This document shows, in pieces, positions 37,389-38,316 of a stretch of DNA of 60,390 nt. Source of the stretch: Candidatus Omnitrophota bacterium (GTDB taxonomy: Bacteria > Omnitrophota > Omnitrophia > Omnitrophales > Aquincolibacteriaceae); the NCBI GenBank assembly GCA_016196555.1, contig JACPXL010000074.1, forward strand, positions 1 to 60,390, written 5' to 3'. Each line of letters starts with the position of its first letter. The first letter of the stretch is position 1. The notes beneath the pieces were generated by a model. The model was not told the origin of the DNA. It saw only the letters and a program-made list of their open reading frames with translations, and did no database searches. The position numbers were made by a program, and so were the translations under genes.

Positions 37389-37820
37389 TTATTCAAGCAA
37401 ATGCCAGGCTTCCCGAAAAATATGTGATTTTGGTTTGCGTTGCCGTTTTTCGGATTCAACCAATGCAATCGCGCTTTTGTAAGATAAAAATTCCACAATG
37501 GGTAGGACATAGCAAATATCAAGATTTTCGATATAACAAATAGCAAAATCGAAATCTCCAAGACCGTATAAAGCCCTCAACATTCTCCGTCGGTTGGTCT
37601 TCGTTCGACGTGTATCAACAAAATAACTTCCTTGGCAATGCCACGCACTTTTAATTTGTATCTTTATGAATTTTCCTTTCACGGCAATTACCAAATCATA
37701 AGGAAGCCGGTCTCCAACAGGACGCAGGACTTCACAACCTAATTTCAACAGTTTGGTAACGACAAAACTTTCAGAAATATCAGATTTTAATTTTGTATCA
37801 GAAGTTTCTTTGGTAAGCAT
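37389..37820 (-). CDS. free-standing group I intron-type PD-(D/E)XK homing endonuclease (I-Ssp6803I-like)
   Basis: TKLKSDISE...P.GDRLPYDLV...KIQIKSAW...RRTKTNRR...DFDFA...KRQRKP...REAWHL; AGGAGG RBS 7 nt before the ATG at 37820; lower GC than the flanks. Confidence 0.88.
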   Translation of the reverse strand: MLTKETSDTKLKSDISESFVVTKLLKLGCEVLRPVGDRLPYDLVIAVKGKFIKIQIKSAWHCQGSYFVDTRRTKTNRRRMLRALYGLGDFDFAICYIENLDICYVLPIVEFLSYKSAIALVESEKRQRKPKSHIFREAWHLLE

Positions 37821-37824
37821 GAGC

Positions 37825-37854
37825 TTCCCTCCTAAATTAATTTTTTGGAGGGAA
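37825..37854 (-). promoter_or_regulatory. hairpin sequestering the endonuclease Shine-Dalgarno
   Basis: Minus strand TTCCCTCC-N14-GGAGGGAA, 4 nt before the ATG. Confidence 0.65.
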
Positions 37855-37979
37855 AATCGTATCGGCCGCGGGACGGCCATAAGTCCTGGAAAGGATTTAT
37901 CCGATTTTTCTGCAGGACAAACCGAAATATCCGCTGGGATGTCTGCAACCCGAATGGAAAATATTATATTTATTTCCAA

Positions 37980-38012
37980 TAAAAAAGCCCGTCATTTCTG
38001 ACGGGCCTTTTT
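37980..38012 (-). terminator. intrinsic (probably bidirectional) terminator after tRNA-fMet
   Basis: GCCCGTCA-GAAA-TGACGGGC-TTTTTT on the minus strand; T-run also on the plus strand. Confidence 0.85.
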
Positions 38013-38017
38013 ACAAT

Positions 38018-38316
38018 TGGTAGCGGGGACAGGATTTGAACCTGTGACCTTTGGGTTATGCATCCTACTACAGCTTTCGCTGCTCTGCGATTCGCGGATT
38101 TGTAGTCTGGACTATACCTTCATCCGCACACATCCTACGGATGCCTGCCGTCTAGTCTCTACACCTTCCCGTCGTTTCCGACAGGCTTGGCTCGGTATTA
38201 CCACTCCCGAACTTCCGGGTTAAGGCTTCACCGACTTTGACAGGTTATCAATCAACCGTTACCGGCTGACCAGCCCAACTTGAGCCCAACGAGCTACCGG
38301 ACTGCTCCACCCCGCG
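38018..38316 (-). tRNA. initiator tRNA-fMet(CAT), intron-split: exon1 38283-38316, exon2 38018-38060
   Basis: Spliced 77 nt: CGCGGGGTGGAGCAGTCCGGTAGCTCGTTGGGCT|CATAACCCAAAGGTCACAGGTTCAAATCCTGTCCCCGCTACCA. C1:U72 mismatch, three G-C pairs in the anticodon stem, encoded CCA. Confidence 0.95.
38061..38282 (-). ncRNA. self-splicing group I intron (IC3, Azoarcus-like), 222 nt, no ORF
   Basis: Follows U33 and ends in G. P1 with U.G pair, P2 with GUAA loop, P3 CCUGUC/GGCAGG, P4 UCGGUG/UACCGA, P7 GACUA/UAGUC, P9 GAAA loop. Core motifs CCGAGCCAAGC, GAAGGUGUAGAGACUAGACGGCA and GAAGGUAUAGUCC. Confidence 0.95.

Follow-up and report, generated by a model that had tools for sequence, protein, structure and literature searches.

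The stretch analyzed here, hereafter the window, comprises 60,390 nucleotides of a contig from a Candidatus Omnitrophota bacterium, and it carries an initiator tRNA (tRNA-fMet) gene split by a group I intron together with a separate gene for a homing-type endonuclease. Every feature of this locus, namely the tRNA-fMet gene, the intron, the terminator, and the open reading frame (ORF) of the nuclease, lies on the minus strand. The whole tRNA gene runs from 38316 to 38018, begins with CGCGGGG, and finishes with GCTACCA, so that its CCA end is encoded. Its 5' exon (38283–38316) is 34 nt long, ends with U33, and is conserved among the fMet genes of relatives, while the 3' exon (38018–38060) is 43 nt long and starts with C34 of the CAU anticodon. 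Between them lies a group I intron of 222 nt (38061–38282) that is ORF-less and has a minimal P1 loop of 3 nt. The tRNA was identified as an initiator by its C1xU72 mismatch and the GGG/CCC pairs of its anticodon stem, and splicing would form the CAU anticodon. Moreover, the exons match the intron-less fMet genes of relatives, and the intron-less G002 allele (L128) has a 3' exon identical to that of the window gene. The gene is followed by an intrinsic terminator (37981–38006), a hairpin of GCCCGTCA-GAAA-TGACGGGC and then TTTTTT, and similar hairpins are present behind the tRNA of relatives.

The initial annotation had proposed, from the letters alone, that the initiator tRNA is split after U33 by a 222-nt group I intron lacking an ORF, and both this assignment and the coordinates held. 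A full-length match (model positions 1–253) to Rfam RF00028 was obtained with 52 bits (gathering score 50) and an E value of 2.3e-10. As the intron and the 3' exon both begin with CA, the position is ambiguous by 2 nt from the sequence alone; placement after U33 is the only one in which the 5' exon ends with U and the intron ends with G, and in the RF00028 alignment the U closing the 5' exon pairs with a G in P1. When the window intron was aligned with 27 other ORF-less fMet introns, compensatory (double) changes were found at 43 of the 73 consensus pairs, although the exon-to-core-strand pairing in that consensus fold is probably wrong. The default run of ARAGORN on the 60-kb window reported zero tRNAs. 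When introns were allowed, the gene was found at 38018–38316 with a 222-nt intron, but it was mislabelled as tRNA-Leu(CAA); some of the intron-split fMet genes of relatives were mislabelled as tRNA-Ser(CGA) in the same mode. Such genes are thus missed or mislabelled by default tRNA finders, so these genomes seem to be without an initiator tRNA.

The nuclease gene (P0001, 37389–37820) encodes 143 amino acids, with its ATG at 37820 and its stop codon ending at 37389. The ORF begins 197 nt beyond the tRNA's 3' end, behind the terminator, and AGGAGGG lies 6 nt ahead of the ATG. A free-standing PD-(D/E)XK gene with its own ribosome-binding site (RBS) about 200 bp downstream had been described beforehand without mention of the minus strand, and the description was accurate. 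Alignment of the protein with the I-Ssp6803I chain of PDB entry 2OST joined query residues 8–142 to chain residues 3–139 with an E value of 7.5e-45; 72 of the 135 aligned query residues were identical (counted by hand from the midline), and the seven I-Ssp6803I-like motifs suggested in the initial annotation were all recovered from end to end. The Pfam profile PDDEXK_5 (PF11645) was matched at positions 2–137 of 138 with 132.8 bits against a cut-off of 26.1 (E 1.1e-38), and a search of NCBIfam release 20 gave no match for the nuclease. Conservation of ≥95% in 86 relatives was found for 49 columns, and 48 of these were kept by the window nuclease, the sole deviation being A16S. The core of E...PD...QxK type, consisting of E17, D42, Q55, and K57, was invariant in a 22-sequence alignment and present in the window nuclease; we take these four to be the catalytic residues. 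In the window genome, a bin of 86% completeness, a single PF11645 gene is present. In contrast to an enzyme encoded inside a group I intron, in P1, the window nuclease has its ORF outside the intron, which is itself ORF-less. A free-standing nuclease next to a gene with a nuclease-less intron, the arrangement that marks collaborative homing, is therefore what the window holds.

The separate RBS and the terminator imply that the nuclease is expressed independently of the tRNA. Ahead of the gene, a hairpin (37825–37855) pairs CCCUCC (37852–37847) with the Shine-Dalgarno sequence AGGAGGG (37833–37827) in both the minimum free energy and the centroid folds, and its energy is unexceptional by itself (z −1.49). 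A CCCUC(C)...GGAGGG hairpin with other loops recurs ahead of the nuclease in two related genomes, G024 (L006 1470–1495) and G009 (L004 1462–1483). Such a hairpin may limit translation of the nuclease by masking its RBS.

The source genome is a metagenome bin of 1.69 Mb in 97 contigs with 86% completeness, which gives some room to an explanation in which an assembly artefact displaced the ORF from the intron. The contigs of metagenome runs X1–X3, labelled as groundwater metagenome, were compared with the locus. Run X2, taken from another sample of the same study, has a contig of 476 nt that spans 37600–38075 and links the nuclease, the spacer, the 3' exon, and the end of the intron. More X2 contigs cover 38056–38280 and 38251–38310, all without differing letters, and run X1, possibly the source sample, agrees with them. 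Moreover, 23 other assemblies show the same layout, among them those of Arcicella, Spirosoma, Anabaena, and Nostoc isolates. The misassembly that the initial annotation had named as a possible refutation was thus ruled out by the bridging X2 contigs, and we give an artefact practically no weight.

The states of the locus were determined in a set of 41 related genomes, in which the window's own genome (G000) was counted. PF11645 was found in seven of them (G000, G007, G009, G012, G016, G020, and G024), all of the same family as the window, whereas the 16 genomes that represent other families of the order were without it. In each of the seven, the gene lies within, or ≤269 nt from, a tRNA-fMet gene split by a group I intron. 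The ORF is located within the intron in G012 and G016 (introns of 666 and 639 nt), downstream on the same strand in G007, as in the window, and upstream in divergent orientation in G009, G020, and G024. Six further genomes (G003, G021, G022, G027, G032, and G035) carry an ORF-less fMet intron and no PF11645 match. The uninterrupted junction GGGCTCATAACCC was present in 17 of the 41 genomes, all without the nuclease, and absent from the seven nuclease-bearing and the six intron-only genomes; in the other 11, neither an intron-split nor an intact junction was seen. The ftsB-enolase block that adjoins the window's gene also adjoins 9 of 18 intron-less loci and the tRNA-fMet loci of G007, G009, G020, G024, G003, G032, and G035. 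Because this neighborhood is shared, all of these are variants of a single chromosomal locus that differ in the presence or absence of the intron and the nuclease. Relative to the block, and compared with the window and G007, the tRNA alone is inverted in G009 and G024, while the tRNA-nuclease pair is inverted in G020. Synteny ends at the nuclease side in all genomes compared (L112–L115 against window 37389–46016).

Two of these relatives bear traces of movement. The G007 locus reads 5' exon, intron (217 nt), CCA-less 3' exon, terminator, spacer, nuclease, and a second, complete 3' exon, which starts exactly at C34 and carries CCA and its own terminator. The terminator of the second copy is similar to those that follow the intron-less genes in G008, G018, and G019, while the CCA-less end and terminator of the first copy resemble those of G023. 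Most simply, this order is explained if a block of foreign origin, made up of intron, exon, terminator, and nuclease, was inserted into the resident gene at the anticodon loop; its left side would have recombined in the 5' exon, and its right side would have been joined to the broken end. In the case of G024, a 19-nt piece of a G007-type 3' exon, starting at about C34, lies 11 nt behind the nuclease, and 0 of 300 shuffles were as good. These remnants provide indirect evidence that the enzymes of this clade cut at C34 in vivo and that intron and nuclease can travel jointly.

To place the window in a wider context, 185,579 species genomes were scanned by pattern with the 22-protein alignment. 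The scan yielded 326 relatives, the best 80 of which were kept, so the layout proportions given here are not population estimates; three of the 80 derive from the same genomes as three of the relatives set. At the protein level, the relatives number roughly 1,600. Loci were classed by exon matches, ARAGORN with introns allowed, and a ribozyme-core profile. The nuclease was located inside a tRNA-fMet intron in 49 loci, four of which were cut by contig ends and identified by the ribozyme core behind the ORF. It was free-standing by an ORF-less intron in 29, and two loci (L046 and L063) were unclassified. The free-standing class comprises 23 loci with the nuclease 49–269 nt downstream of a tRNA-fMet gene with an ORF-less intron, four (L042, L076, L090, and L103) with the nuclease 1.1–2.1 kb downstream of the tRNA, and two divergent ones, whose genomes are also in the relatives set as G009 and G020. 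L103 has a 14-nt copy of the tRNA 3' end (2410–2423) 78 nt ahead of the nuclease, as if insertion had taken place at the tRNA end. The 29 loci are spread over four named phyla, with representatives in Nostoc, Anabaena, Nodularia, Tolypothrix, Arcicella, and Spirosoma and in Saprospiraceae, Anaerolineae, and Omnitrophota records. The free-standing layout is therefore not rare, and the window is one ordinary member of many.

The insertion site was common to all fMet-intron loci aligned. In 38 of the 45 inside loci checked, the ATG lies 2–31 nt past the splice site, so the inside ORF is placed within the P1 loop and extends into the ribozyme, which agrees with the Synechocystis case in the available text of PMC3073962. 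The co-occurrence of intron and nuclease, for which the initial annotation had suggested a survey of related genomes, was also evident in the wider survey, where the nuclease was accompanied by an intron-split tRNA-fMet gene in 78 of the 80 loci. A nuclease beside an uninterrupted tRNA-fMet gene, which would have contradicted the proposal, was seen in none of the seven nuclease-bearing relatives and in none of the 80 loci. The intron-less tRNA-Met genes adjoining the nuclease in L068, L071, L082, and L084 were considered as initiators and rejected, as all are of the elongator type. When five further genomes with a free-standing nuclease were searched whole, the intact junction was found in none.

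Taken together, the window probably holds a two-part unit for trans, or collaborative, homing at the initiator-tRNA gene in the chromosome of an Omnitrophota-type bacterium. The parts of the pair, their homology, their linkage, and their distribution are as described above, and the comparative data, namely the co-occurrence, the missing intact junctions, and the G007 block, fit such homing and support the interpretation given in the initial annotation. From these, we infer that the nuclease cleaves uninterrupted tRNA-fMet genes, that the intron protects its host gene and splices, and that repair copies both elements. By homology, the 143-aa protein would bind and cut a pseudo-palindrome of about 23 bp that is formed by the anticodon stem-loop of the uninterrupted gene; the initiator-tRNA genes of E. 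coli may be substrates as well. The intron, placed between U33 and C34 in the middle of the site, would separate the half-sites so that the host gene is no substrate, and it would splice itself from the pre-tRNA so that the gene remains functional. When an intron-less allele meets the locus, the intron-bearing copy would serve as template for repair of the break. At a distance of only about 240 nt, past a 43-nt exon too short to anchor repair, the nuclease gene would then be copied with the intron; because this 3' exon is so short, same-species repair would usually run to homology beyond the nuclease. Expression of the nuclease would proceed from its own RBS behind the tRNA terminator, with the RBS possibly masked by the hairpin.

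Several observations weigh against this interpretation. The six relatives that have the intron and no nuclease in the genome demonstrate that the intron persists without it. An internal stop codon is present in L060, where the nuclease lies inside the intron, and in L063, where it lies by a tRNA-Ser(CGA), which marks both as decaying copies; the G024 nuclease (L006 1501–1945) has no stop codon after the conserved ...HLL end. In the latter, the frame is open for 532 amino acids, through the 3'-exon remnant and into the next gene. Furthermore, an intron-less allele of the same species was not found in the metagenome contigs of runs X1–X3. The contigs of these runs that share the 5' exon (window 38281–38316) run into uninterrupted anticodon arms with other T-arms and at much higher depth, so these intron-less fMet ends belong to other organisms; other community members thus carry intact target sites. 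As for the window copy itself, no nuclease in the family tree has a longer end branch (1.13, the median being 0.22), and the synonymous divergence of the window copy is saturated, so that it is not included in the ratios of nonsynonymous to synonymous substitution (dN/dS) given below. Neither tRNA-exon nor ribozyme remnants flanking the window nuclease were detected by blastn-short, an nhmmer core profile, or shuffle tests; with no exon remnant, the window copy bears no direct trace of movement. Finally, the free-standing ORF of at least two lineages has apparently exited an intron rather than being about to enter one.

This last point derives from the sequence behind the ORFs. As an intron-borne ORF overlaps P1/P2, the 60 nt behind each free-standing ORF were compared with the locus's own P1/P2 strand in 31 loci. 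A resemblance was found in L101 (0/1000 shuffles as good) and in L043 (2/1000, with an exact 11-mer), and these two ORFs probably left an intron; weaker signals were given by L074 (13/1000) and L104 (36/1000). A resemblance noted by eye behind the stop codons of the window and G007 was dropped, since 988 and 567 of 1000 shuffles were as good. Remnants of the 5' exon upstream of free-standing ORFs were found in 0 of 31 loci at under 200/1000 shuffles, so a simple tandem duplication followed by decay is not supported. The spacers between tRNA and nuclease are not conserved. A quick maximum-likelihood tree of 84 nucleases (140 columns, with many unresolved forks) requires at least 11 changes of the inside/free label, and its well-supported branches force at least four for the inside group, so the layout has switched several times.

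These traces bear on an explanation in which the window nuclease is a resident relic or domesticated gene that left its intron long ago and has since been inherited vertically, with no homing, being otherwise kept or slowly decaying. The P1/P2 remnants of L043 and L101 indicate such an exit; pseudogenes occur, the spacers are unconserved, the window copy has a long branch, and in G007, G009, G020, and G024, the nuclease lies by tRNA-fMet at the same ftsB-enolase block, with the tRNA or the pair inverted. However, the window copy keeps 48 of the 49 conserved columns, and the at least 11 switches of layout, at least four of them forced by well-supported branches, show that copies keep moving; the import of a foreign block in G007 points in the same direction. 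Free-standing copies of other lineages are, moreover, under purifying selection as strong as that on intron-borne copies, with dN/dS of 0.04–0.09 (seven pairs with measurable dS) against 0.05–0.13 (five pairs). We therefore regard a relic as unlikely, and collaborative homing is preferred.

The same selection, maintained in many lineages, and the expression of the nuclease separately from the tRNA, with a terminator in between and an RBS of its own, could also be expected if the enzyme had another target or role, such as defence-like cutting of incoming DNA that bears an initiator tRNA, or had drifted to a new site. Against this, the conserved columns of the family are common to intron-borne and free-standing members, and the linkage to tRNA-fMet is constant (78 of the 80 loci and 7/7 nuclease-bearing relatives). 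Another role is accordingly considered very improbable compared with homing into tRNA-fMet. A search of 50,697 phage and 72,556 plasmid records gave no close homologue of the nuclease and is uninformative on targets. Nine phage records (H1–H9), from Salmonella, Klebsiella, Escherichia, and Pseudoalteromonas phages, match the N-terminal half only (residues 4–69) with 36–42% identity, some being annotated as endonuclease or methyltransferase, and there were zero plasmid matches.

A further proposal goes beyond collaborative homing and is offered tentatively, as we hold it to be somewhat doubtful. The nuclease might shuttle repeatedly between the P1 loop of the intron and the free-standing site, and its free form might be part of a larger mobile block, comprising the ORF-less intron, a 3' exon that replaces the resident one, a terminator, and the nuclease, which can enter foreign genomes through homology of the 34-nt 5' exon alone, while its other side is joined to the broken anticodon loop. 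If this were true, the shuttling block would be a homing cassette that replaces half of a tRNA, and the loci would document, as a natural series, how mobile introns arise and break up.

A candidate promoter, TTGAAT-17-TAGAAT (38368–38396, minus strand), lies about 50 nt upstream of the tRNA; it was the single site found, which is not above chance, as the shuffle mean was 1.6. No RNA run containing the stretch was found. Among the named protein relatives, the best come from Omnitrophota bins. The neighbors are ordinary chromosomal genes: ftsB/divIC, enolase, a purN-type formyltransferase, a methylase, a polyprenyl synthetase, a YegS-like kinase, an MFS transporter, and a Na/H exchanger. The window genome contains a second group I intron, which is ORF-less, 286 nt long, and located in a tRNA-Thr(CGU) gene (77 bits; G000 contig C5:1792–2080; L009 1453–1814). 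In G017 and G039, versions of the tRNA-Thr intron of 631 and 570 nt carry an HNH-type ORF (CxxC...HH...CANCH), and G036 has an intron in tRNA-Asn(GUU); the loci of these relatives are L018, L024, and L028. To our knowledge, tRNA-Thr(CGU) and tRNA-Asn(GUU) are not among the bacterial tRNA genes for which introns have been described.

The initial annotation considered this arrangement unfamiliar at a chromosomal tRNA gene. This stands as regards publications, since no description of free-standing I-Ssp6803I relatives by bacterial tRNA-fMet genes was found in a full-text literature search whose reach did not extend to the primary I-Ssp6803I papers and supplements; in genomes, the arrangement is common (29 of the 80 loci, the best of 326). 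According to the available parts of PMC1995217 and PMC3384342, I-Ssp6803I, an enzyme encoded in the tRNA-fMet intron, is active in homing and has a pseudo-palindromic target of 23 bp. In Synechocystis PCC 6803, a 150-aa ORF is located inside a 655-nt intron, in P1, with a 61-nt overlap with P1/P2, as described in the portions available of PMC1995217 and PMC3073962. The window system is alike in protein family, host gene, insertion site, and ribozyme family. It differs in that the intron is 222 nt long with a 3-nt P1 loop, the ORF forms a gene of its own that begins 197 nt beyond the tRNA and its terminator hairpin lies in between, and an Omnitrophota-type bacterium takes the place of a cyanobacterium as host.

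For two phages, as far as the text available of PMC3984707 extends, a free-standing nuclease and an ORF-less intron have been described as homing collaboratively. In phage T4, mobE adjoins the nrdB gene, whose intron has a defunct I-TevIII, so that a free-standing nuclease likewise lies next to a gene with a nuclease-less intron, and the accessible parts of PMC2790892 and PMC3984707 state that the linkage permits co-conversion of both in trans homing. However, the MobE enzyme is of the HNH type and the gene is a phage protein-coding gene, while the window has a PD-(D/E)XK enzyme and a bacterial chromosomal tRNA gene; mobility is experimental in T4 and inferred for the window pair. In the case of cyanophage S-PM2, the free-standing F-CphI targets the insertion site of the neighboring ORF-less group I intron of psbA (PMC3984707, PMC6083498, in the parts available). 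This resembles the window pair, which differs in nuclease family, in being bacterial rather than from a phage, and in residing at a tRNA gene rather than a protein-coding one. The S-PM2 case has been proposed as a step to invasion of an intron by the nuclease, whereas some free-standing copies at fMet loci carry intron remnants that point in the opposite direction. The union of introns and nucleases is usually argued from these two phage examples. The anticodon loop of the initiator tRNA, a single and very conserved bacterial target, is found in public genomes in every state, namely empty, intron alone, nuclease inside, nuclease beside in three orientations, and a fossil of joint insertion. 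With such a range, comparison and simple crosses can be used to test in what order events took place and what each layout costs and brings. It is concluded that the protein and ribozyme of the window belong to the I-Ssp6803I/tRNA-fMet system and that the working model for the pair is collaborative, or trans, homing as known from phages.

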